Shown: positions 38,639 through 51,315, counted from the stretch's first letter. The stretch: DNA of 64,000 nt from Candidatus Woesearchaeota archaeon (GCA_016188215.1 JACPIF010000011.1:172159-236158), one strand, 5' to 3'. The notes: generated by a model not told the origin, from the sequence alone. Program-made: numbers and translations.

Positions 38639-38799
38639 GAAAGAAAGCGAATAAATAAAGGGTTAAAAAGGTTGCGTAGGGTGCAACGTTTATAACCAAA
38701 AATCCAACTCCATAAAACAACGCAGTAAACTATATCTAGGCACTGGTCACTGGACATCCCCGCGTGAGATATATAAAGGGGTACAGTTTTGCGCTATGC

Positions 38800-39633
38800 A
38801 TGGCAGAGCATAATGCCCTCGTGGTTTTTCAGGACAAGAAAATAAGAAGGGTATGGCATAATGGCCAGTGGTACTTTTCTGTTATTGATATTATAGGTGC
38901 TTTGACTGAAAGCAAGGATCCTCGTACATATTGGAAAGTGCTAAAGCATAGGTTATCCGAAGAAGGCAGTGAGGTGGTTACAAAATGTAACCAACTGAAA
39001 TTACCTGCGGCAGATGGAAAATATTACGAGACAGACTGCACCGATACCAAGACCATGTTTAGATTAATCCAATCCATACCATCCCAAAAGGCAGAACCGT
39101 TCAAGCTATGGCTTGCTCAAGTAGGCTATGAGCGTGTCCAGGAAATACAAAATCCAGAGCTATCCCAAGAGCGCATGAAAGCTTTGTACAGGGCAAAAGG
39201 CTACTCTGAAGACTGGATAGAAAAAAGGATGCGGGGAATAGCAATCCGCCAGGAATTGACTGATGAGTGGAGGAAAAGAAATGTTAAGGAGGGCAAAGAA
39301 TTTGCTATCCTGACAAATGAGATAAGTAAGGCTACCTTTGGCAAGACTGTAGAAGATTACAAGAGGCACAAAAACCTGAAAAAGGAGAATCTTCGCGACC
39401 ATATGACTGATTTGGAACTTATCTTTTCCATGTTGGGCGAAAGGGCTACAACAGAAATTGCAAGGACAAAAGATGCAAAAGGATTCCGAGAAAACAGGAT
39501 AGCTTCCATAAAAGGCGGAAAAATAGCCGGTCAGGCAAGGAAAAACTTAGAAATTGAGACTGGCAAGAAGGTTGTCAACCGGGATAGCTACCTTAAAGAG
39601 CCAGAACGAGAAAAGAGGAAGCGATTGAGATGA
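38800..39633 (+). CDS. Bro-N domain protein (phage antirepressor-like)
   Basis: KIRRVW..WYFSVIDI, ADGKYYETD, AEPFKLWLA and ENLRDHM pattern. Confidence 0.88.
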   Translation: MAEHNALVVFQDKKIRRVWHNGQWYFSVIDIIGALTESKDPRTYWKVLKHRLSEEGSEVVTKCNQLKLPAADGKYYETDCTDTKTMFRLIQSIPSQKAEPFKLWLAQVGYERVQEIQNPELSQERMKALYRAKGYSEDWIEKRMRGIAIRQELTDEWRKRNVKEGKEFAILTNEISKATFGKTVEDYKRHKNLKKENLRDHMTDLELIFSMLGERATTEIARTKDAKGFRENRIASIKGGKIAGQARKNLEIETGKKVVNRDSYLKEPEREKRKRLR

Positions 39634-40250
39634 ATATCTTATTGTATATTCTGTTCATTATCTTAATGCTAATACTTGCATTCTTCACCTATTGGCGCCT
39701 CTGGTTCCTCCGCGACCCGGAAAGAGCCGCGCCAAAAGGCAGGAACATAGTAAGCCCGGCGGACGGTAAAATCCTGAAGGTTGCAAACATCAAGAAACCA
39801 ATAGTAAAGGTAGACAAGGGCTTCATCGGCAAAATCTACACAGCAACCAAAGACGTAGCCTCAGAAACAAAATTAGTTGCTATCTTCATGTCCCCCCTGG
39901 ATGTGCACTACAACCGCGCACCGATAGAAGGCAAGGTAATTTCTGTAAAGCATACAAAAGGAAAGTTCTTTGCAGCAAATAAATTGGAAGAATCATTGCA
40001 GAACGAGAAGAACGAGATTGTTATTCAAAACAAGGAAATTGGAAAGGTCAAGGTAATCCAGGTTGCTGGCTTCCTCGCAAGAAGAGTCATCTGCTACGTG
40101 CACAAAAACCAAAATGTTATTAAAGGCGATAAAATAGGCTTAATCACTTTAGGAAGCCAGTGCATCATCATCATGCCAAAGAAAGTAAAGCTGTCGGTCA
40201 AGGAAGGCCAGCAAGTCTACGCCGGAACAACAATTATAGGTGAATACTGA
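39630..40250 (+). CDS. psd: Phosphatidylserine/archaetidylserine decarboxylase
   Basis: FLRDPER, SPADG, IFMSPLDVH..RAP and LGS cleavage site. Confidence 0.9.
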   Translation: MNILLYILFIILMLILAFFTYWRLWFLRDPERAAPKGRNIVSPADGKILKVANIKKPIVKVDKGFIGKIYTATKDVASETKLVAIFMSPLDVHYNRAPIEGKVISVKHTKGKFFAANKLEESLQNEKNEIVIQNKEIGKVKVIQVAGFLARRVICYVHKNQNVIKGDKIGLITLGSQCIIIMPKKVKLSVKEGQQVYAGTTIIGEY

Positions 40251-40784
40251 ATGAACATGCTTAAGCTTGTCAAGGCCCCTGATCTTGTCTCTCTGCTGAG
40301 CCTTGCTTTTGCAATGCTCTCAATCTTCTCCTCTATTGAGCGTGATTTTAATACAGCAATGTTTTTCATGATCCTTTCAGTGGTGGCAGACTACAGCGAT
40401 GGCATGCTCGCCAGGCTCATGCATCGCACCGGGAATTTTGGCAAGCAAGTGGATTCTCTTGCAGACATTATCGCGTTCGGTGTAACACCTGCGGTATTCG
40501 GCTACATGGTCCTTGGCAGGGACACCTTCACAATGGCCGCATTAGTCATATTCACCTGCGCCGGCTTGCTGCGATTGGCCCGATATAATATCTCTCCTGC
40601 ATCGGACTATTTTGAGGGGCTGCCTATTACCAGCTCCGCTCTGCTCATCCCGGCTGCATACACCCTCCTGCCGCTCAACCTTTTACCTTACCTCTATCTT
40701 CTATTAGCAGCCCTGATGATATCATCAATTAAAGTCAGTAAGCTAAAATTAGGTAAAAAGGATAAGAAGCAAAAGAAATCATAG
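40251..40784 (+). CDS. pssA: CDP-alcohol phosphatidyltransferase (serine synthase type)
   Basis: DYSDGMLAR..GKQVDSLAD, LRLARYN and FEGLP motifs. Confidence 0.88.
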   Translation: MNMLKLVKAPDLVSLLSLAFAMLSIFSSIERDFNTAMFFMILSVVADYSDGMLARLMHRTGNFGKQVDSLADIIAFGVTPAVFGYMVLGRDTFTMAALVIFTCAGLLRLARYNISPASDYFEGLPITSSALLIPAAYTLLPLNLLPYLYLLLAALMISSIKVSKLKLGKKDKKQKKS

Positions 40785-40915
40785 GTCAATCTGAAATTAC
40801 AGATATGATATTTTTAGAGAAGCTACTTGCATTTATTGAGATAAATTATCTCGAGATCTAGGTAAAGCTATATAAAGGGGCATATATCACCCAGTACTAG
40901 ATTGGGTGGTGTTGT

Positions 40916-41485
40916 ATTGTAAAAAAGAGGTCTCAGGCTAAAGCACTATTTCTATCAATTCTCTTACTTACTGCTCTGGCTGTCATTACTATAGCTCTTA
41001 ATCATTCTTTACCAGAACAAGCGGTTAGTCCTGATTTACAGAATATTCTTTCTAAGAATCCTAAATTAGCCACTGTAGTGAATGGGCAGTCTATTGATAC
41101 TGAATATATAAGGGAATATTTGAAGACTTATAAGGGCTTTTCTGAGTTGCAATACCGGAATGTGGGAAAAGGCGAGATAGTTAGGCAAACGTTAGCTGTT
41201 GGCAATAATGAGGAGAATATCAAAGGATTTGAGATCAATGGGAAAAGATATGTAGTACACCTAATAGCGTGTGATGTTAATTATGGTCAATGCATGTTTA
41301 GGATAAACGGATTGCCAACAGGTGGCATCAAAGTTCACAACAGGAATGCTTCTGGTTTTGATTTGGATAATACTTACAGAGTGGAAATTGATTCTGTCAC
41401 TTTTGATTATTGTGGTACAAAAAGATTCTGCAATTTGCATTATGAGGCGTATGATAAAGTTGAAGTGAGGGTGAGACCTAAATGA
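40916..41485 (+). CDS. Secreted protein with class III-like signal; probable ATT start
   Basis: Frame open upstream of GTG 41078, giving (I)VKKRSQAKALFLSILLL; GGTGGTG SD-like sequence before ATT 40916. Confidence 0.65.
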   Translation: MVKKRSQAKALFLSILLLTALAVITIALNHSLPEQAVSPDLQNILSKNPKLATVVNGQSIDTEYIREYLKTYKGFSELQYRNVGKGEIVRQTLAVGNNEENIKGFEINGKRYVVHLIACDVNYGQCMFRINGLPTGGIKVHNRNASGFDLDNTYRVEIDSVTFDYCGTKRFCNLHYEAYDKVEVRVRPK

Positions 41486-41928
41486 AGAAATTTATGTTGT
41501 TAGGATTATTATTAGTAATAATTATTTCAGGGTGTATCCAACAAACGGCTTTAGACACTAAAGAATTAATAAACACTGATAATTCCAATAAGTATAGATT
41601 AGATGAATTGATAGTTCAATTTAACTCTGTATCTTCTAATGGACTCATTGCTTCTATAAATTCTGAAAATCAGGCAGATGAAATAAATTTTAGAAATTAT
41701 TTTGAAAAGAATATTGCAAATATTAAAAATAACTATAACAAAATTGTTGAACTCAGGATCACATATCCTAGTCAAGCAAATCTGGCTTTTGTAAAAATTA
41801 TATATAGTCAAAACACTACTGAGCAAGAAAAAGAACAAATTCTCAAGTTGTTGAAGGAAGATTTAGAGGAAAGATGGTACTCCAAAAAAGTAAATTTTAG
41901 TGTGATAGAATATGTCAGTGGCAAATAG
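41482..41928 (+). CDS. Lipoprotein-like protein, possibly protease prodomain-like
   Basis: IISGC lipobox-like signal; YRLDELIVQF. Confidence 0.65.
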   Translation: MKKFMLLGLLLVIIISGCIQQTALDTKELINTDNSNKYRLDELIVQFNSVSSNGLIASINSENQADEINFRNYFEKNIANIKNNYNKIVELRITYPSQANLAFVKIIYSQNTTEQEKEQILKLLKEDLEERWYSKKVNFSVIEYVSGK

Positions 41929-43684
41929 AAGATGGAATAAGGTTGAGAAAATAGTATTTTGCTTAATCTTGATTTCTATGCTCTTGCCTATCTCACATGC
42001 AACTAATAATGATGCTAACGAAAAGATTACAAAAAAACTAAACCAAGAAGATTTTGTTGAGGTTATCATAATCCTAAAAGATCCCGATGATCTTTCAAAA
42101 GTTGATTTGTCTAACCGAAGATTAAAAGTAAAGAATCTCCAGGAGTCTATATTACACGGATTATCTCAAGATGAGATAAAACAAGTGAAAAGATTTCCAC
42201 TAACTAATGGCTTTAGCGGAATAATATCAAAGAAAGGATATGACAAAATTAAGAATAACCCTAGTATTAAATCGATACGTCTTGTTGAAAAAGAATATGT
42301 TCTGCTAACAGAAAGTGTACCTATTATTGAAGCTAATCTAGTCCAAAATTTATCGTTTACCGGGGAAGGACAAACAGTTTGTGTTATTGACACGGGAGTT
42401 GATTACGGCCACCCTAATTTAGGGTCTTGTACCCTTTCTCAATTTTTATCTAACTCATGTTCAAAAATAATTGGAGGATATGACTTTTGGAATGATGATT
42501 CTGACCCAATGGACGATTTTGGACACGGCACCCATGTTGCAGGGATTGTTGCCTCCGATAGTACAATCTATAGGGGAGTCGCGCCGGATTCAAGACTGAT
42601 AGCTCTTAAAGTATGTGGAAAGAACTTTTCAGAAGGTTGTTCAACTCCTAATATGATAAGCGCAATAGACTGGTGCATTAGCAATGCCAGTAAGTTTAAC
42701 ATCACTGTAATTACTATAAGTATTGGCGGAGGAGCGTTTTCATCATATTGTGATGATGATGACGATAGAAAACAAAGTATAGACCTGGCTATAAAAAATA
42801 ACATCTTTGTAACAATTGCTTCGGGGAATAATGGCTTTATAGGAGATATCTCAGCGCCTGCTTGTGTTGAAAATGCTACCTCGATAGGCGCTACAGATAA
42901 AAATGATAATGTAGCAACTTATTCAAATCGGAATCAAAATTTAGATTTATTAGCACCAGGTGGTGAATGGGGTTCTTCTACTTCTCCTTATTCAGAGATT
43001 GTATCAACATTTTCGCCGAATGTATCAAATGATCCAAACTTATGTTTTATAAGGAACACACAGGGTATATGTTTTGATACTTCTTATAACGTAACACCGT
43101 ATTTTATACGTTCTATTGGCACTTCAATGGCTGCTCCACACGTAGCTGGTATCGCAGCTTTGTTGCAAGATGCATATGATGGTAATCTCACACCTTCTCA
43201 AATTTTATGGATACTGAATGAAAGCGGGGAGGATGTGTGGGATTCTGAGGTTGAAACTGGATTATTCTCAGAGGGTAAGTATTTCCCTAGAGTGAATGCT
43301 CTTAAAGCTCTAGAATATGCTTCTTATCTTGATATTCAACACACTGATTGGCCCACTCAGCGCCACGACAACCGAAGGACAGCTTTTACAATTTTAAAAG
43401 GAGATATGAATGCCTCAAATATCGATAATTATAATCTTTATTTAACAAACGGAACTTCCCAAGAGTATGTTATTCGAACTAGTATTGCAGACATAGATGG
43501 CAACGGATATATGGAAGCTGTTACAGTCGCCCACGAGAAGATATCAGATAATGAAACAGATGGCAAGGTATATGCTTTTGAGAGAAATAGACGTTTCAAT
43601 GAGATATGTCCTTCTTTCTTCCCATTCTGCTGGGAAAATGAGCGGAAGTGGCATGTATCCGTTAATTCTGGAGGAGCTCTATGA
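41912..43684 (+). CDS. S8 subtilisin-like protease with prodomain and truncated FG-GAP tail
   Basis: VIDTG, GHGTHVAG and GTSMAAPH catalytic triad motifs. Confidence 0.92.
   Translation: MSVANRRWNKVEKIVFCLILISMLLPISHATNNDANEKITKKLNQEDFVEVIIILKDPDDLSKVDLSNRRLKVKNLQESILHGLSQDEIKQVKRFPLTNGFSGIISKKGYDKIKNNPSIKSIRLVEKEYVLLTESVPIIEANLVQNLSFTGEGQTVCVIDTGVDYGHPNLGSCTLSQFLSNSCSKIIGGYDFWNDDSDPMDDFGHGTHVAGIVASDSTIYRGVAPDSRLIALKVCGKNFSEGCSTPNMISAIDWCISNASKFNITVITISIGGGAFSSYCDDDDDRKQSIDLAIKNNIFVTIASGNNGFIGDISAPACVENATSIGATDKNDNVATYSNRNQNLDLLAPGGEWGSSTSPYSEIVSTFSPNVSNDPNLCFIRNTQGICFDTSYNVTPYFIRSIGTSMAAPHVAGIAALLQDAYDGNLTPSQILWILNESGEDVWDSEVETGLFSEGKYFPRVNALKALEYASYLDIQHTDWPTQRHDNRRTAFTILKGDMNASNIDNYNLYLTNGTSQEYVIRTSIADIDGNGYMEAVTVAHEKISDNETDGKVYAFERNRRFNEICPSFFPFCWENERKWHVSVNSGGAL
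43346..43651 (+). repeat. 306-bp direct repeat, copy 1 (copy 2 at 45027-45332)
   Basis: Encodes DWPTQRHDNRRT...ERKW in both proteases; 93 nt (43529-43621) identical. Confidence 0.95.
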
Positions 43685-43974
43685 AACTTATTTATTTTTT
43701 ATTATTAGGCCTTATACTAGTAAGCGGATGCAATGAATCTGAATCATTGAAAAATGAAAGTGTTTACACTAAACACGAAAATTTTGCTCGATTTGAATTA
43801 CCACAGGTAGCTGGTGAGTGTCGAAGTGATTCTCAGTGCATTATAGGTGGTTGTAACGGAGAGACTTGTACTGCTAAAGAAGCTAAAGTGACAACTTGCG
43901 ATGTTCCTAAAGGTATGAAATCAGGTGTATCATGTAAGTGCATTAATCAAGGATGTATTTGGACCAAAAAATGA
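43681..43974 (+). CDS. Small secreted eight-cysteine-cluster-like protein
   Basis: LVSGC signal; CRSDSQCIIGGCNGETC..TTC..CKCINQGCIW. Confidence 0.8.
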   Translation: MKLIYFLLLGLILVSGCNESESLKNESVYTKHENFARFELPQVAGECRSDSQCIIGGCNGETCTAKEAKVTTCDVPKGMKSGVSCKCINQGCIWTKK

Positions 43975-46835
43975 AAAGTAATATTTTAACTTTAAGTTTG
44001 TTCTTCTTAATTTTAATAATTATAACTCCTTTGAGCTATTCATTAGATAAAAGTAGAAATGAAATTGGTGCGGATATAGTCAATAATCTAGGGGTAACAG
44101 GAAAAAATAATACGATATGTTTAATTGATGATGGTGTTGATTACACACATCCTAACTTAGGCAACTGCACTCTTAATCAAATTTCTATTGGCCAATGTCC
44201 AACCTTTATTTCTGCTACTGATTTAGTTGAGAATGATTCAGACCCTTATCCAGAGGGAGAACAGGAACATGGTACACAAATTGCAGGAATTATTTTATCA
44301 AATCACGAAAAATATAAAGGTATATCCCCTGGTGCTAAAATAGCTTTTGTAAGAATTTGGGACTATGATTTTATTAATCAAGAATCTACAACAAATACAG
44401 CATTAGTTCTAGATGCTATTCAATGGTGTATAGATAATAGAAATAATTATAGCATCTCTGCTATTAGTCTTAGCATGGGTTTAGGATTTAGTCAATCCTC
44501 CAATATCACATCACAATTTCAATCAAAAATTGACAACGCTACTAGAGTCGGAATACTTTTTGTTAAATCATCTGGTAATAGAGAGGATGGTGATACTTAT
44601 AACATGACATTCCCTGCTGATTTGGGAAATGTTACATCAGTAGGTTCAGTGAGAAATAAGGACAAAATTTCATATTTTACGAGAAGAACTTCAAACTTAG
44701 ATTTATTAGCTCCAGGTGATAAAATAAGAAGTACAATAGTGGGAACGGGCTTCACAAGTTTTCTAGGTAATCTAATTTGTTGGCATAACAGTGACACAAT
44801 TGCTGGTTCGCTAATTACAAGGAAAGTTCTTCCTTTTTGTAACTATGGAACCTCCTTTTCCGCTCCTCATGTATCTGCTGCAGTCACATTATTAAAAGAA
44901 TATGACTCTGGTTTGAAACCTCATGATATAGAAAATTTATTAAAGGAAACTGGTAATGATGTCTATGACTCTGTGACTAATTCTACATTTAAAATGATCA
45001 ATTTACCTGCTGCTTTACATATTTACGATTGGCCCACACAGCGCCATGACAACCGCAGAACTGGTTTAACACTTTTAAAAGGTGACATGAATTCTTCAAA
45101 CATTGATAATTACAATCTCTATTTAACAAATGGAACTTCCCAGGAATATGTCATCAGAACTAGCATAGCAGATGTTGATGGCAACGGGTATATGGAAGCT
45201 GTTACTGTAGCCCACGAGAAGATATCAGATAATGAAACAGATGGCAAGGTATATGCTTTTGAGAGAAATAGACGTTTCAATGAGATATGTCCTTCTTTCT
45301 TCTCATTCTGCTGGGAAGATGAGCGGAAGTGGTTTATTGATCTGCATAGAGTAATCATGCATCCTCCTACAATTGGCAATATTGACGAAACCATTCAGAA
45401 AGAAGTCATAGTTCCGACCAGGAATGGCACATTAAGAGTACTTAATGTTAGCACAGACGGCAAAACTGTTTATGATAAATGGCAATATTTGACTAAGCCT
45501 AAATTCTCAACTTTTTCAGGTAATAATCACACAGCTGAACTGAGCGGTTCTGCAATTGCAGATATTGATTTAGACGGGAATCCTGATATTATAATTACAG
45601 ATTCTGCTCCAAGGGCTGTGTATGACTGGCCCGGACAGATATATGTCTTAAATCAGACAGGTGGACTAAAATTCAATGCAACTTTTGGGAATGCAGGGGC
45701 CTTTGGAGCACCATCTATTGCAAATATAGATGAGGATGATTACCCTGAAATTATTATACCTTCATTCTATGGAGTTTTTGTATATGACTATAATGTAACT
45801 CATAATAATCTGACTTTAAAATGGAACAATAGCGACGGATTAATAGATGGAGAAATTGTAGTCTATGATATAGATAGAGATAACGAATATGAGTTGATAT
45901 ATTCCACTTCGCCTGTCTCATGTGCCGCTCAAAAACAGTGTTACAATAGGACTTATATTAGAGATGCTAAGACTGGCGCAAATGAAGGGCCAAGTCCTAT
46001 AAATTATACGTTTGCAACCATGGTAGCTCCAACCATAGCTAATCTGGACAATGATTCAAACTTTGAGATAGTAGTTATTGGGACAAATGAAAAAGTAAGT
46101 TATGGTCTGGGCAAATTAAGAGCCTATGATGCAAGTTCTGGCAATCTTGAATGGGAGTACAATGATTCTAATAGCTTAATAACTCCTTTTGCAAGTCCTG
46201 TTATAGCAGATATCACTGGTGATGGCAACCTTGACATTATTTTTGCGGAAAATAATGGTACACAAGTTTATATTTTGCATAAAAATGGCACCTTAAACTT
46301 TAGATACTTCTTTGATGCTTTTGTAGACAATGCTTTAGCCATAGGTGATTTAGATAAGGATGGAAAAGCCGAGATTGCACTTAAAAGAGCAGGCTCACCT
46401 GTGGCCTTTACAACATTAACAGCTTTCAATGATCCTCCAGAATTAAACCTCATTAATAATTTAACTGCAAGGGCAGGAGATTTAATAAATCTAAATGTGA
46501 CAGGACAAGTTACTGCGATAGACCCTGAAGGAAATAACTTAACTCTTAGTTATAGTTCTCCATTCAATAGTTCAGGGCTATGGCAATCTACAATCAATGA
46601 TACGGGCAATTATTCCATTCTAGTAGAGGTAAGCGATGGAGGCATTACTGATTCACAATTTGTATTCTTACAAGTTTTCAACACAACTTCTACCTATGTT
46701 AGTAACTTAACGGATGGCTCTAACCAGAAAATACTGAACTATACACAAGCATCTAATCAATCTGTGCAGCTTAGACTGCCAAAAAATGTAAGTATATTGT
46801 ATGCAAGCATAAAAATAGAGGGAAAAGGTCAATGA
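43971..46835 (+). CDS. S8 protease without prodomain, fused to an FG-GAP/VCBS propeller and Ig-like domain
   Basis: LIDDG, EHGT and GTSFSAPH motifs; repeated ADxDxDG motifs; NDPP..DPEG Ig-like segment. Confidence 0.9.
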   Translation: MKSNILTLSLFFLILIIITPLSYSLDKSRNEIGADIVNNLGVTGKNNTICLIDDGVDYTHPNLGNCTLNQISIGQCPTFISATDLVENDSDPYPEGEQEHGTQIAGIILSNHEKYKGISPGAKIAFVRIWDYDFINQESTTNTALVLDAIQWCIDNRNNYSISAISLSMGLGFSQSSNITSQFQSKIDNATRVGILFVKSSGNREDGDTYNMTFPADLGNVTSVGSVRNKDKISYFTRRTSNLDLLAPGDKIRSTIVGTGFTSFLGNLICWHNSDTIAGSLITRKVLPFCNYGTSFSAPHVSAAVTLLKEYDSGLKPHDIENLLKETGNDVYDSVTNSTFKMINLPAALHIYDWPTQRHDNRRTGLTLLKGDMNSSNIDNYNLYLTNGTSQEYVIRTSIADVDGNGYMEAVTVAHEKISDNETDGKVYAFERNRRFNEICPSFFSFCWEDERKWFIDLHRVIMHPPTIGNIDETIQKEVIVPTRNGTLRVLNVSTDGKTVYDKWQYLTKPKFSTFSGNNHTAELSGSAIADIDLDGNPDIIITDSAPRAVYDWPGQIYVLNQTGGLKFNATFGNAGAFGAPSIANIDEDDYPEIIIPSFYGVFVYDYNVTHNNLTLKWNNSDGLIDGEIVVYDIDRDNEYELIYSTSPVSCAAQKQCYNRTYIRDAKTGANEGPSPINYTFATMVAPTIANLDNDSNFEIVVIGTNEKVSYGLGKLRAYDASSGNLEWEYNDSNSLITPFASPVIADITGDGNLDIIFAENNGTQVYILHKNGTLNFRYFFDAFVDNALAIGDLDKDGKAEIALKRAGSPVAFTTLTAFNDPPELNLINNLTARAGDLINLNVTGQVTAIDPEGNNLTLSYSSPFNSSGLWQSTINDTGNYSILVEVSDGGITDSQFVFLQVFNTTSTYVSNLTDGSNQKILNYTQASNQSVQLRLPKNVSILYASIKIEGKGQ
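45027..45332 (+). repeat. 306-bp direct repeat, copy 2
   Basis: Same length and frame-preserving match to 43346-43651. Confidence 0.95.
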
Positions 46836-49105
46836 AAAAGATACTAGTACTTTTCATTCCTGTACTATTTTTATTAGTTAATAGTTTAAATATCTCAGGT
46901 TATGCTACCTGTACAACTACTGGAGATTGTCCATCGGGTTTTACGGATAATGGTACAATTTGTGAAGGAAAAATTTGCTACAAGCAATGTTACATATACA
47001 CATGTGGTAATATATCCGATATAACATGGACTCAAGAATTCTCAGATGCAAATAAACCGCATATAAAAGATCAAACAGATTTTGATGTAACTGATTCGCT
47101 CGGATATACGCCTACTAATACATCCAGATGTTATAAATTTGAATACAGAGGGCCATCTTCAAATTCATGCATACAAATGAACGCAAATGAAAGTGCAAGC
47201 CCACCAAACAATTGTGATAGCGAAGCTATTGTTGGTTTTAGGGATTTAACAAATTTAGAAGACCCATGGTACAAGAATATTTACACTGCAGATAGTTATC
47301 GAGGCCCTAAGTACCTTGGTTTAGTTAACAAAGTCCAATTTGACTACATGGTTAAAGTCGCAAGATCCCATGCTGATGGAGAAGGGACATCTGACTCATA
47401 TAAAGCAGATTTAGAAATTACAAACTCAATTTATTGTGCCAACAATAGTGCAATCTGTGATGCAATGGCGCCACTTCATAATTGCACTACGGGATGTTAT
47501 AATAAAGAAACAAGATTAAGAGGCTTCCAAGGGTTTCTTGTAGAAAGTAATTCCATAGACAATACTTTATATAATGGAAACGGGTGCGGTGTTCAATACG
47601 TTGAAGCAAATATTGGGAATTATTTCACAGTTAAGAGTTCTGAAGGCTGTTCAGGTGGTTATTATGTATACAGTGCTCAAGCAAATATAATTAAGTATGA
47701 TACAAGTGCCAGATGTGACATGGTAAATGAGGCCCCCAATATAACAGGTGTAAAAATATTGCCATTAATGCCTAATGCTGGCCAAAACTTATTTTGTAAC
47801 TATACCTATTATGACACAGAAAACTTCACCGAGCAGAATTCAAGCTATGAATGGTGGAAGAATAATGTAAATCAAAATATTAACTCTCAAATCCTTGAAT
47901 ATAAAAACCTAACACCAGGTGATTTATGGTTTTGTAAGGTATCAGGAAGTGATGGCGATAAGACTTCTGTTTTTGTGCAAAGCGAAAATAATGTAACGAT
48001 AAACTCTACCCTGCAAAATCCCATACTCTACGTAGATGGCAATCAGTCATGGAATGAGAGCGGCTATTATGGTATAACCAAGATAGTTGACTTTGATAGC
48101 CAATTGCGTTCTGCTTTAAACAGCTGCACTGCAGATGCCCAGGGTTACTGCAATATATCGCTTACCTTCTTCTCTAATGCTACTGGATTGCTCAATATAA
48201 CAAACATTAACGTGTATTATGATAACCCTGTGGCAGCAGTATCTGTTGCAGATACTACATTAAACCTGACAGCATTACAATCTGATAATACTGTAAGATT
48301 ATTTGAGTTCACCATAATTAACACTGGAAACTCAAAAATCAGCAATCTTTCCTGGAAATTAAGCACTGGAGAAGCAATCCTAAACAGTACCCAGAACGTA
48401 ACGTTGGATGCTAGTGAGCGCTTAGTCTCTTTGATCCATTATAACTATACCACTGAAGGAAGCTTTGCTGTAATGGCAAATATAACGTATGATAATCTCA
48501 CCAGCAATGCCTCCCTGCTTGTTACCATAGGCAACCTGTTAGTTGACTCAATGCAGGAATTATCGCGGGTAGGAAAGGTAATAGTATATGAAATCAAAAT
48601 CCTAAATATAAGGAATGAGTCTATAAACAATGCAAATTGGTCGGTAAACATCAGCGGGGCTGATACTTATGCGAATAAAATCTATAACCTCACATCCAAT
48701 GAGTCACTCTACCTCTATTTTGAGCAGAACCACACCAGTTTTGGTGAATATCAAGTTAAGGCAACTGCGTTTAACCAGAACTTTACTCATTCAAAAACCC
48801 TCACCACATTGCTAAAAGAATTAGTGGTTATTGGGCTAAAAGTCCTCAATGCCACAAGCACAAGAATTCAATTTGAATTCCTCATCAATAACAGCCTTAA
48901 TGCCACCGTAAATGCTATCAACTGGACTTTGAATACTGGCTTGACTAATGTCTCTAGTACTACTAATATAACTTTGCAGTCTAATGAAACTGTGTATGTC
49001 ATCACTGATTATAATTACACATCTAGCGGAACGTATGCAGTCAATGCAACTGCAAGAAAGAACGAGTCTTCAGAGGACTCACAAAATATTTCCATAACAG
49101 TATAA
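46832..49105 (+). CDS. Secreted Cys-rich protein with three C-terminal CARDB/Ig-like repeats
   Basis: Signal peptide; many N-x-S/T sequons; repeated FEFxIxN..W..NYTxxG. Confidence 0.8.
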   Translation: MKKILVLFIPVLFLLVNSLNISGYATCTTTGDCPSGFTDNGTICEGKICYKQCYIYTCGNISDITWTQEFSDANKPHIKDQTDFDVTDSLGYTPTNTSRCYKFEYRGPSSNSCIQMNANESASPPNNCDSEAIVGFRDLTNLEDPWYKNIYTADSYRGPKYLGLVNKVQFDYMVKVARSHADGEGTSDSYKADLEITNSIYCANNSAICDAMAPLHNCTTGCYNKETRLRGFQGFLVESNSIDNTLYNGNGCGVQYVEANIGNYFTVKSSEGCSGGYYVYSAQANIIKYDTSARCDMVNEAPNITGVKILPLMPNAGQNLFCNYTYYDTENFTEQNSSYEWWKNNVNQNINSQILEYKNLTPGDLWFCKVSGSDGDKTSVFVQSENNVTINSTLQNPILYVDGNQSWNESGYYGITKIVDFDSQLRSALNSCTADAQGYCNISLTFFSNATGLLNITNINVYYDNPVAAVSVADTTLNLTALQSDNTVRLFEFTIINTGNSKISNLSWKLSTGEAILNSTQNVTLDASERLVSLIHYNYTTEGSFAVMANITYDNLTSNASLLVTIGNLLVDSMQELSRVGKVIVYEIKILNIRNESINNANWSVNISGADTYANKIYNLTSNESLYLYFEQNHTSFGEYQVKATAFNQNFTHSKTLTTLLKELVVIGLKVLNATSTRIQFEFLINNSLNATVNAINWTLNTGLTNVSSTTNITLQSNETVYVITDYNYTSSGTYAVNATARKNESSEDSQNISITV

Positions 49106-49120
49106 AGGAGGAATGAAACC

Positions 49121-49717
49121 ATGAAAAACCAAACTTTCAGATTTTATGCAGTACTATTCATAATAGGATTAATATTAGCTTTGGTTGCCATTGGTGTTAT
49201 CTCTCCGGTGGAAACAATCCAGGTTAACCCATCGCTTAAAGTTGATAAAAACCTTGATTGCCAGTCCGTGTCTTACGAGGAATTAGCGCCAGTATATGAG
49301 AATGTCACTGAACAAAGAGAGATTTGGGGCACTTGTCAGGTATTTTCTGTTGAAAACCAGACGAATCAGCCAAAACCCTGTATTACAGCTAATGAAACAT
49401 ATATTGTTACAATCCAGACAGGCTATCAAAATGTAACCAAACAAAGGCAAGAGTGTGCTGAAGACTCATACACTATAACTGCAAATTCAATCACTGAAGA
49501 TATAATATATAAGCAATTTGGAAGGTGCTCTTACCAGAATATTACAGATGGTATAGTTATCACCTGCGACAGCAAATATGATGGCAATGGGGACGGAAAA
49601 TGCCAGTCCGGAGAAAGCTGCTGCAGCTACACAGTAACCTCTGCAGGAATACAATCAAACTGTGATCTTGACTCTGCGTTCGTAGAGCAGTCAAAGCCTC
49701 TGGAGGTGCGAAAATGA
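49121..49717 (+). CDS. Membrane-anchored Cys-rich protein
   Basis: N-terminal TM; CDSKYDGNGDGKCQSGESC motif; GGAGG SD. Confidence 0.75.
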   Translation: MKNQTFRFYAVLFIIGLILALVAIGVISPVETIQVNPSLKVDKNLDCQSVSYEELAPVYENVTEQREIWGTCQVFSVENQTNQPKPCITANETYIVTIQTGYQNVTKQRQECAEDSYTITANSITEDIIYKQFGRCSYQNITDGIVITCDSKYDGNGDGKCQSGESCCSYTVTSAGIQSNCDLDSAFVEQSKPLEVRK

Positions 49718-51315
49718 AAACAATAACCTTTATCTTATTATCTGTAACTATTTTAGCAGTTTTAAGCTTAAATGCATTAGCTGCTCAGACAAGATGTGAC
49801 ATTTATTTTAATGAAACAGGAGGGTTTGGCAGTGAAAGAGAATTAGTCCATAATTTAACTGTTGCAAGCGTGCCTAATGAATGTAACTGGAGGGGGAATA
49901 CAAGTTCTCTAAGATTTTATTGTAATGACGAAGCAGTCCCATTTGAGCTTAATGCAAGCAATGAAACTGTTAGATTCATACTTACAAATCTCTCTGCTTC
50001 TCATACTAACAGTAAGCCATGCTATTATACTTTTAATGATACTGCTGGAATATCTTCAGCTAATGTATCTATTATTCAGGTATGGTTTGATGGAGGCGAT
50101 TCTAAGGGTAGTAGTGGAGATTGTCCTCTGGGGACCACGTCTTCTGCTTGGGCTTATAGTGGGGAAAAATCCTGCATATTAACAGCCCTACAGAATTGGA
50201 ATACTGGAATTAATTACAAGACTTTTTGCTATACATCTAATGCAGCCTCAGGAAGCAATTACAATGATTACCAGGGTGATGTCAATGACAACTTCAGATT
50301 CTTTGCAGACACCACAGATAATATAGGATGCACCGCCGCTGATAATGTATGGTGTAACTCTTCAGGAGTTGCTCTTAGCCAAACTCCATTTAATCTAAAT
50401 ACTCCAGAAATTATCTGTTTTAATACAACGAGTGCAACAGATAGAACTGGGGAATATCATAAGAATGGAACTCAGTTCAATAACACCGCTTCTGGAGCAG
50501 CTCACACATCCCTTACAAATTATAAGGTTCAAGGCAACGGACCCTATACTAAATATTTTGATGAAGTGTTTATAAGCAACACCTATCATTTCCTCATGTA
50601 TCCGAACCACCTGAAGATTGGTGTTGTTTTAGCACCGCCATCTGGACCCGACGTGCCTCCAGCAATTACATTTTATAACATGACCTCCTCTGGGGGCTGC
50701 GGCGCATGGAATACTAACAAATCAGCACCTTGCACCACAGAAGATACAACTCCAACAGTAAATGCTACAATCAACGAAGCCGCCTATTGTAGGATAGGCG
50801 TGTCTGATGTCAACTATACAGCAATGGGTGATCTGAGAAACTGCACGGGTGGCAACACGGTAAGCCATATATGCAGTTTAACAGATTCAGATGCAATAAC
50901 CTCTTTAGAGGCAAATATCTACATAAGCTGTAAGGACACTGCAGGCAATGAGAATATCACCAGCACATCAGGTGCCCTAAAAATGAATATTACGCCTGCT
51001 AACGAATCAATAGGGGACGCCCAAATAGAGTCTGGGATTAATTCCAGCCTAATAAGTGGGGCCAATATTCTGAGCAGCCAACAGGTTTATATTAGAACAT
51101 TAACAAACAGCCAAACTTTAGGTAGGTTTGACAAGGTAGCTATCTCAGGAAGCCAACGATGGGCATTCAATTATATATCTTTGAATGAGACCACAAGCCA
51201 GTTCACCAACATGGTTAATATAACACCAAGCTTTTATGTGCTTGAAATAGCCAACAGAACTAGCACTAATATAAGCAGGACGATTAGTGCTTTTATTAAT
51301 GCGACTAAGCAGTGA
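49714..51315 (+). CDS. Secreted glycoprotein-like protein
   Basis: Signal peptide; many sequons; ISCKDTAGN Ig-like motif. Confidence 0.75.
   Translation: MKTITFILLSVTILAVLSLNALAAQTRCDIYFNETGGFGSERELVHNLTVASVPNECNWRGNTSSLRFYCNDEAVPFELNASNETVRFILTNLSASHTNSKPCYYTFNDTAGISSANVSIIQVWFDGGDSKGSSGDCPLGTTSSAWAYSGEKSCILTALQNWNTGINYKTFCYTSNAASGSNYNDYQGDVNDNFRFFADTTDNIGCTAADNVWCNSSGVALSQTPFNLNTPEIICFNTTSATDRTGEYHKNGTQFNNTASGAAHTSLTNYKVQGNGPYTKYFDEVFISNTYHFLMYPNHLKIGVVLAPPSGPDVPPAITFYNMTSSGGCGAWNTNKSAPCTTEDTTPTVNATINEAAYCRIGVSDVNYTAMGDLRNCTGGNTVSHICSLTDSDAITSLEANIYISCKDTAGNENITSTSGALKMNITPANESIGDAQIESGINSSLISGANILSSQQVYIRTLTNSQTLGRFDKVAISGSQRWAFNYISLNETTSQFTNMVNITPSFYVLEIANRTSTNISRTISAFINATKQ

Follow-up and report, generated by a model that had tools for sequence, protein, structure and literature searches.

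Polymorphic toxin loci reportedly follow a common logic, set out by Zhang et al. 2012, in which a conserved module is combined with variable tips, immunity genes, and displaced cassettes. In loci of the Rhs, CdiA, and MafB types, the variable part is a C-terminal tip, the immunity gene lies downstream, and the orphan cassettes are found on the 3' side. A different form of modularity is seen in hydrolases such as phage endolysins, autolysins, and S8 proteases with a propeller or PKD domain, in which an N-terminal catalytic domain is shuffled on a constant C-terminal binding module. Here, we describe a locus with features of both in a stretch of 64,000 nucleotides (nt) from a Candidatus Woesearchaeota archaeon (GCA_016188215.1, JACPIF010000011.1:172159-236158; hereafter the window), where five genes on the + strand, with neighbors overlapping by 4 to 22 nt, encode a small protein (small gene 1), an S8 protease (protease 1), a second small protein (small gene 2), a second S8 protease (protease 2), and a protein of 757 amino acids (aa) (Table 1). 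Our results make it probable that this locus produces a secreted two-part protein, which would consist of a hydrolytic N-terminal head and a C-module of ~600 aa (an FG-GAP propeller and a C-terminal region), and that over evolutionary time the head is replaced by recombination as a cassette, together with the small gene immediately upstream of it, the old cassette being displaced upstream. As in Rhs, CdiA, and MafB loci, a large conserved module is joined at a conserved junction to unrelated enzymatic domains (three head classes here), a small gene adjoins each variable domain and, as judged from the sequences, appears matched to its class, the displaced cassettes each retain a piece of the conserved region, and an orphan could be joined back onto the main gene via short homologous repeats. 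Unlike in those loci, the variable head is N-terminal, the small gene is upstream, and the orphans lie on the 5' side; in addition, the heads are hydrolases that act outside the cell and not nucleases or deaminases acting within it, the organism is an archaeon, and no RHS/YD, filamentous-haemagglutinin, or other trafficking or secretion-system marker was found in the locus proteins scanned with Pfam and NCBIfam, Pfam giving S8 and FG-GAP only. The resemblance to Rhs and contact-dependent inhibition (CDI) loci that was proposed in a first-pass annotation of the window, which had already noted the mirrored polarity, is therefore upheld for the junction, the unrelated tips, the adjacent small genes, and the displaced cassettes, and it does not extend to trafficking domains. 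With modular cell-surface hydrolases, the locus shares an N-terminal catalytic domain on a constant C-terminal module, but it differs from them by exchange at one syntenic locus within a genus, by serial displaced remnants, and by a class-matched small gene; we know of no such exchange with serial remnants and a class-matched small gene among these enzymes, although no literature search was aimed at this point.

Both proteases match Peptidase_S8 (PF00082) in Pfam well above the cut-off of 21.8 bits (152.4 bits for protease 1 and 136.6 bits for protease 2), and the catalytic triad, in the order Asp-His-Ser (D59, H106, and S301 in protease 2 numbering), is invariant in 14 of 14 alignment rows, including that of protease 1. 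FG-GAP repeats were detected by Pfam in protease 2 only (FG-GAP_3, 52.5 bits, cut-off 26.9; FG-GAP, 36.2 bits, cut-off 22.1); protease 1 gave no FG-GAP match in the same scan and carries just a 102-aa stub. This stub is encoded by the first of two copies of a 306-nt direct repeat, which follow the two heads at a distance of 1681 nt from start to start and have sharp edges at 43346/45027 and 43651/45332. The copies differ at 32 of 306 nt (89.5% identity), with 30 of the 32 differences falling within the first 183 nt; the 3' 123 nt are 98.4% identical versus 83.6% for the 5' part, which suggests a later conversion tract or a mosaic donor. Differences affect 30 codons, 23 of them synonymously and 7 non-synonymously, so that the repeat is identical at 95 of 102 residues at the protein level, compared with 128 of 338 (38%) for the catalytic heads, and the likeness between the copies is not due to chance. 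The longest identical run in the window is 93 nt (43529-43621, equivalent to 45210-45302). At position 45303, where the window has T, all four public sequencing runs compared (see below) read C, as in copy 1; the Pro/Ser difference at codon 93 is then gone and the identical block extends to 108 nt. The repeat reaches residue 580 of the 590 residues of protease 1, which stops 10 codons later. As each copy starts in phase with the codons of its own open reading frame (ORF; 1434 = 3x478 and 1074 = 3x358), a crossover between them would link head 1 to the propeller without a frameshift, in a protein of 478 + 602 = 1080 aa. The first-pass annotation had read this layout from the sequence, namely a 306-nt repeat at these coordinates and spacing behind two divergent S8 domains, a stop 10 codons after it in protease 1 and a continuation into an FG-GAP propeller in protease 2, differences that are mostly synonymous in the 5' half, a 93-nt identical block, and the potential for an in-frame fusion of protease 1 to the propeller; all of this is borne out by the ORFs, the Pfam matches, and the coordinates, with the identical block being longer in the public contigs.

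Such a structure might also be produced during assembly if two strain alleles, one joining head 1 and the other joining head 2 to the propeller, had been chained via their shared repeat. Six groundwater runs from two studies contain the stretch, stored as k-mer contigs, and four of these were compared in detail. In line with a chaining artefact, the repeat is collapsed into one graph node, a 108-nt node corresponding to the identical block, and none of the public contigs spans this block in copy 1, the linkage of head 1 to the stub being the parsimonious reading and not a proven one. However, the depth of this node is about double that of its surroundings (112.5 versus 36-58 in run X1 and 34.1 versus 16-17 in run X2), and a contig covering 43607-45239, present in both runs, starts within the 3' end of a repeat copy, crosses the unique junction, and takes in small gene 2 and head 2 before it enters copy 2, which means that a truncated stub upstream of small gene 2 exists in any case. 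Furthermore, a 283-nt contig from the independent study (X6 record 30, 45162-45444) bridges the copy-2-specific part into the propeller, showing that head 2 is joined to it, and the same layout is found in other assemblies. The public contigs thus argue against the misassembly of two alleles that the first-pass annotation had named as the finding that would undo its proposal, and we regard an artefact of this kind as highly improbable.

The relatives of the C-module place the repeat in a broader context. A search with residues 359-820 of protease 2 retrieved 176 proteins at E<=1e-5, among which S8 plus FG-GAP architectures are common and the best ~40 of which carry labels such as Woesearchaeota and Nanoarchaeia where labelled at all. 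A start motif, DWPT..HD.RRTGFTLLKGD, was present in 37 of 42 rows examined, and the C-module measures 574-614 aa in 26 of the 29 rows holding a complete one (~600 aa overall). The C-modules of the relatives begin at the same junction, and the repeat represents the first 102 residues of a conserved C-module; the first ~60 nt of this module are also the most nucleotide-conserved stretch of the gene (0.69-0.72 versus a median of 0.52 over 35 distinct genes). The N-termini preceding the junction (n = 37) form three unrelated clusters, comprising 19 phospholipase C (PLC)-like heads (class A), 12 S8 heads (three of these rows being the window's two proteins), and 6 papain-like heads (class C). The class A profile gave 6 of 6 matches to zinc phospholipase C in the Protein Data Bank (PDB; E 0.0055-0.06), reached Pfam Zn_dep_PLPC (PF00882) with E 0.013 and 15.9 bits, under the cut-off of 26.8, and had an ESM-feature lead to the Zn_dep_PLPC cluster with a score of 0.87, whereas for class C, 12 of 13 PDB matches were C1 (papain-family) peptidases, all weak (E 0.03-0.5). 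The identities given to class A and class C are thus leads, not memberships. For the class A head of one relative (P0016), the nearest clusters in the ESM Atlas are hypothetical proteins of the candidate phyla radiation (CPR, Minisyncoccota; score 0.90), a lead only that another episymbiont lineage may use enzymes related to the PLC-like head. In IMG/VR, the query used returned one weak, propeller-only match (31% identity) without the junction, and the family was not found there.

Head class varies independently of the C-module. On a maximum likelihood tree of 32 C-modules, head class needs 14 changes (shuffled mean 13.0, minimum 2), and 177 of 200 shuffles were as good, so that head class is spread as if at random relative to the C-module tree. 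The clearest case involves a genome of the same genus, G001, whose C-module is sister to that of the window (SH-aLRT 100; 88% identity over 397 columns), and whose syntenic gene carries a PLC-like (class A) head preceded by a different small gene. In a blastn comparison of the two, homology covers the region of gene U, upstream of the locus (40894-41485, 73%), ends at the stop codon of gene U (41485), is absent over both cassettes, and is back at 45018, 9 nt before the junction, from where it continues to 48225 at 76%. The window genome and G001 each have one such locus; the head difference is therefore a replacement in place and not a mix-up of paralogs. Neither repeat copy is closer to G001 (15 versus 12 informative sites, both at 65-72% identity), and the resident copy is not distinguishable on this basis. 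The G001 gene (L010, contig C44, 2632-5522) has a frame break within its propeller and reads as two ORFs (559 and 398 aa); the same split recurs in metagenome contig L051, and the break may therefore be real and not an assembly error. In a second genome of the genus (G002, 100% complete), the queries used found no anchor match and a partial match (38%) to the downstream gene, and the locus was not found. The closest relatives of the two window heads are in more distant proteins, P0032 for head 1 (58% identical, on a complete C-module) and P0020 for head 2 (63% identical, in a complete protein of 951 aa), the C-modules of which are just 35% and 41% identical to that of the window. These nearest relatives sit on complete genes, in keeping with the window heads having once been parts of complete genes themselves. 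Together, the three head classes at one junction, their uncoupling from the C-module tree, and the syntenic swap in G001 agree with the earlier suggestion of swappable N-terminal enzymes on a constant module, and the relatives show varied heads with paired small genes as opposed to the single invariant protease, always without such partners, that had been named as the contrary outcome.

To look for remnants elsewhere, we built profiles for each of the three head classes, for the anchor, and for the remaining propeller and mapped them on 28 species-representative and 45 metagenome loci, which together with the window gave 74 loci; a locus was assessed if it had a recognizable main gene and at least 1 kb upstream. 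By these criteria, 24 loci had no main gene, 12 had <1 kb upstream, and 2 ran off the 5' end of the contig, leaving 36 assessable loci, 34 of them distinct. Family material was found upstream in 20 of the 34, in agreement with the orphan-like displaced copies that the first-pass annotation had proposed for the window. The remnants, in classes that overlap since one locus can count in several, comprise a head with its stub in 4 loci (the window, L035, L056, and L029), a stub only in 7, a head fragment in 7, an S8 head without stub in 5, and a complete extra unit in 2. For example, the array of L029 starts with an S8 head, continues with a class A and then a class C head, each followed by a stub, and closes with a class C gene that reaches the contig end; in L053, a complete class A gene is preceded by an S8 head and its stub. 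Wherever an array shows both kinds of copy, the truncated ones lie upstream and the complete gene is last. The breaks fall anywhere between the interior of the head and about residue 300 of the C-module, most are followed by unrelated tails of 1-17 codons (24-37 codons in a few cases), and the stop of the truncated copy mostly overlaps the ATG of the next ORF, usually a small gene. Identity between the stub and the downstream gene varies from 93% in the window, 92% in L029, and 90% in L012 to 65% in L011.

These arrays also bear on the simplest alternative, that the two proteases are ordinary tandem paralogs, i.e. that an S8-propeller gene was duplicated and the upstream propeller deleted, with conversion keeping the 306 nt alike and the small genes being unrelated neighbors. 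The fact that both window heads are S8 and alignable (38% identity), the complete tandem units in L016 and L070, and the contrast between the 3' and 5' parts of the repeat (98.4% versus 83.6%), as a conversion tract would yield, are all in keeping with such a history. It does not explain, on the other hand, why unrelated head classes are mixed in the arrays of L029, L053, L073, and L074, why G001 has a PLC-like head at the same site with the homology break exactly at the junction, why the window heads are nearer to heads of other genomes (58% and 63%) than to each other (38%), or why the type of small gene follows the head class and the product of small gene 2 co-folds into the active site (see below). 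We therefore consider tandem paralogy unlikely and favor cassette replacement. The simplest route for this would be one-sided homologous recombination, in which the incoming DNA would carry a small gene, a head, and the start of a C-module. The right-hand crossover would take place within the conserved C-module, which starts at the motif described above, while the left end would be joined illegitimately inside the 5' part of the resident gene, and the resident cassette would be shifted upstream with a stub of C-module retained. In the window, the displaced cassette would correspond to small gene 1 and protease 1 with the 102-aa stub, and the current one to small gene 2 and protease 2 on the complete propeller. 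By this route, the divergence of a stub from the new copy would be the divergence between donor and resident, both stub lengths and stub identities would vary between loci, and the differences between the copies would be mostly synonymous because both evolved as parts of working genes. The same end state could be reached by deletion in arrays of complete units (as in L016 and L070) or by insertion of an excised circle, the routes being indistinguishable here. As to the regularity of the left junction, our best guess is selection for translational coupling of an essential immunity gene.

A more dynamic scenario is that the identical block of 93-108 nt recombines now in natural populations, excising the 1681-bp unit (small gene 2 plus head 2) and bringing head 1 onto the propeller. 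The crossover would be in frame and the block is 108 nt long in the public contigs; L015 and L030 share one stub-to-small-gene junction, as if it were travelling with the cassette; in X1, the contig of the middle segment has a depth of 36.3 versus 45.3 and 58.2 for its flanks; and the selection of orphan Rhs toxins reported in Salmonella would be a precedent (PMC3967940). In X2, however, the depths are equal (17.3, 16.2, and 15.6) and the repeat node has twice that value, as the plain tandem form predicts, unitig depths are noisy, and the event would be one-way unless the excised circle re-inserts. No such joint is listed in the four runs compared; the only one listed, from 42487 to 43117 with a side of 21 nt, lies in conserved S8 motifs and probably stems from other organisms. 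Ongoing switching in present-day populations thus appears quite unlikely to us, and the replacement of cassettes over evolutionary time remains the reading that we adopt.

The small upstream genes provide a further line of evidence for a cassette. Small polytopic membrane proteins of one family are encoded ahead of 15 of 30 class A heads and 2 of 9 class C heads but of none of the 19 S8 heads; members of a Cys-rich family occur ahead of 3 of these 19 S8 heads and of no other class. When 46 pairs were sorted by crude features, the protein preceding the head had a single signal peptide or a lipobox for 11 of 13 S8 heads (Cys-rich in 7 cases), whereas it had multiple transmembrane (TM) segments for 19 of 26 class A heads and for 6 of 7 class C heads. 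Small-gene type therefore tracks the head class. The two small proteins of the window are unrelated outside their signal peptides. Small protein 2 aligns with Cys-rich proteins located upstream of other S8 heads, with C47, D50, C53, C58, C73, and C92 in common, and matches the NCBIfam eight-cysteine-cluster domain TIGR04289 with E 5.2e-8 and 33.4 bits, below the cut-off of 50; the Pfam scan gave no match to PF27854, which the source database lists for this protein. We co-folded residues 30-358 of head 2 with residues 18-97, the mature form, of small protein 2, each with its alignment, in three runs and with three controls, the co-folding of small protein with protease having been proposed as a check by the first-pass annotation. 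The pair scored 0.92 in all three runs, compared with 0.00 for the best of the 3 controls, a mark that 58 of 80 solved complexes attained, as did 2 of 110 mismatched pairs. The runs share at least 91% of contacts, with a partner pLDDT of at least 81. In the models, loop 70-75 of small protein 2 (VTTCDV) lies over Ser301, His106, Asp59, and the oxyanion Asn209; the contacts of lowest expected error are made by residues 71-75 on S301, H106, N209, and the 174-176 strand, and D59 is also in the interface. This modeled geometry is that of a canonical, substrate-like inhibitor and supports binding of small protein 2, for which we accordingly predict a role as a canonical-type inhibitor of protease 2 or as its immunity protein. 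In the model, it resembles canonical subtilase inhibitors as a disulfide-rich protein that would lay a loop across the active site. It differs from them in belonging to no known inhibitor family, the families of solved subtilisin inhibitors included, with the sub-threshold match to TIGR04289 as its sole match, and, given its lipobox, in that it would be tethered to the membrane of the producer, where it might shield the cell in the manner of an immunity protein. For small protein 1, neither Pfam nor NCBIfam returned a family, a hint to the Fervidolysin prodomain (0.06) being the only signal; its AlphaFold2 (AF2) model has a beta-alpha-beta-beta-alpha-beta topology at a pLDDT of 61.8, and Foldseek gave generic ferredoxin-like matches, none with E<=0.001. 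A role as a stand-alone subtilase propeptide is at most a tentative idea for this protein, given the faint Fervidolysin hint, the weak model, and the lack of a propeptide among the Foldseek matches listed. Of the upstream cognate inhibitors suggested by the first-pass annotation, the co-fold with protease 2 therefore speaks for small protein 2, and small protein 1 is at most a candidate partner of protease 1.

Several points weigh against the interpretation of the locus as a system of exchangeable cassettes with matched small genes. The PLC-like and papain-like assignments are under curated thresholds, and the AF2 model of the PLC-like head, built from an 11-row alignment, reached a pLDDT of 40.2 only. 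No recombinant or deletion form was seen among the public contigs, in which a repeat of 108 nt cannot be phased. Small genes and heads are not paired without exception, as 2 of 13 S8 heads follow multi-TM proteins, L025 has a Cys-rich gene near a papain-like head, and in L035 the Cys-rich gene precedes a protease resembling head 1, with a different lipoprotein preceding the one resembling head 2. The co-fold score may in part reflect likeness to the abundant solved subtilisin-inhibitor complexes, and for small protein 1 no fold or partner was identified by Pfam, NCBIfam, AF2, or Foldseek. The relatives are not independent, with many loci coming from few groundwater data sets, so that the counts overstate the number of independent events. 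Finally, concerted evolution of the C-modules of paralogs, or deletions in tandem arrays of complete units (L016, L070), could give the same pattern.

The features of the locus are listed in Table 1. Repeat copy 1 covers the entire ANCHOR profile (positions 1-96 of 96), and the remaining C-module covers positions 3-500 of 501 of the family propeller profile. The left junction contains a Shine-Dalgarno-like GGAGG for small gene 2, the ATG of which overlaps the stop of protease 1 (ATGA); junctions of this type recur in other loci, and the one in the window is crossed by a public contig (X1 record 5, 43607-45239). At the left edge of the variable region, the frame of gene U is open from 40901 across a TM segment and the first ATG, GTG, or TTG occurs only at 41078, its homologue in G001 being a protein of 194 aa with an ordinary start; an unusual start codon or an error are possible reasons for this late start. 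On the right, the downstream partner gene overlaps the stop of protease 2 by 4 nt, and its product is 71% identical to that of G001 over residues 1-466. In most loci with a visible downstream side, as at 46832-51315 in the window, the gene next to the family gene encodes a large secreted protein whose N-terminus is Cys-rich (CT..C..G.TDNG), probably a functional partner of the propeller protein. The surface-protein operon lies within a low-GC island, 40-50 kb being at 35-38% GC versus 44-50% in the flanks; no tRNA gene was found at the edges of the island, the two tRNAs of the window being at 16 and 26 kb. Directly upstream of the island, a 289-aa protein (38764-39633, + strand) contains a Bro-N domain (42.9 bits), which is typical of phage and mobile-element proteins. 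Immediately upstream of the locus (39630-40784, + strand), a phosphatidylserine decarboxylase (154.9 bits) is encoded beside a CDP-alcohol phosphatidyltransferase (62.2 bits), a pair of lipid head-group synthesis genes in a small genome.

Table 1. Features of the cassette locus, in positions of the window
Feature	Position	Strand	Description
Gene U	40901-41485	+	Membrane or secreted protein; conserved; left edge of variable region
Small gene 1	41482-41928	+	148-aa protein, lipobox ISGC; part of cassette 1
Protease 1 (whole ORF)	41912-43684	+	590 aa, S8
Head 1	41912-43345	+	Signal peptide, ~110-aa N-terminal extension, S8 catalytic domain; displaced cassette
Repeat copy 1	43346-43651	+	102-aa C-module stub (propeller start) on displaced protease 1
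Left junction	43652-43684	+	10 unrelated codons and protease 1 stop
Small gene 2	43681-43974	+	97-aa Cys-rich lipoprotein, VSGC lipobox, eight Cys after lipobox
Protease 2 (whole ORF)	43953-46835	+	960 aa, S8 and FG-GAP propeller
Head 2	43953-45026	+	Signal peptide and S8 catalytic domain; without the N-terminal extension of head 1
Repeat copy 2	45027-45332	+	Start of complete C-module
Remaining C-module	45333-46835	+	FG-GAP propeller, then ~150-aa C-terminal region
Downstream partner gene	46832-49105	+	757 aa, signal peptide, Cys-rich CT..C..G.TDNG N-terminus; right flank of operon

From a functional point of view, all parts of the locus have signal peptides, and the displaced heads retain a start codon, a signal peptide, and the catalytic triad within an overlapping operon. 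Because displaced cassettes are placed on the 5' side, they keep a promoter-proximal position together with their start codon and signal peptide and are probably still made; judging from these sequence features, the displaced heads would probably still be secreted, without the targeting body. The heads, by the family matches described above, would be hydrolases of proteins and probably of phospholipid head groups. Such a repertoire fits an extracellular weapon or feeding tool that would act on the envelopes of a host or of competitors, with the small genes protecting the producer. The source genome is of groundwater origin, 1.11 Mb in size, and 91% complete, and we refer to the group as DPANN on the basis of the source labels and titles of the relatives (Woesearchaeota, Nanoarchaeia, Nanoarchaeota) and of this genome size rather than of a phylogeny. 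More tentatively, the family may constitute a mirror-image polymorphic effector-immunity system of DPANN archaea, in which 5' hydrolase cassettes would be horizontally exchanged along with class-matched immunity genes and docked on a propeller acting as a targeting module, the displaced heads would be expressed as the arsenal of a ~1-Mb genome against host or competitor envelopes, and the repeats would allow head switching. We found no account of this family, nor of orphan arrays on the N-terminal side, in the full-text literature searched, which lacks most subscription journals. Little is known about the ways in which DPANN archaea engage other cells, feed on them, or compete with them, and conflict systems have been defined in archaea in few cases; the locus is a concrete candidate, as it combines an extracellular enzyme with a targeting module and with a predicted cognate inhibitor. 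The last of these, a Cys-rich lipoprotein, may stand for a subtilase inhibitor family that is new. Comparison of the loci points to a rapid turnover of cassettes, the mark of an arms race. From an evolutionary point of view, the combination of a conserved module, a swappable tip, an immunity gene, and an orphan array would be one that can be built in the opposite polarity, with the displaced cassettes still expressible, and this changes the search strategy for such systems, since scans for C-terminal tips would miss loci of this kind.

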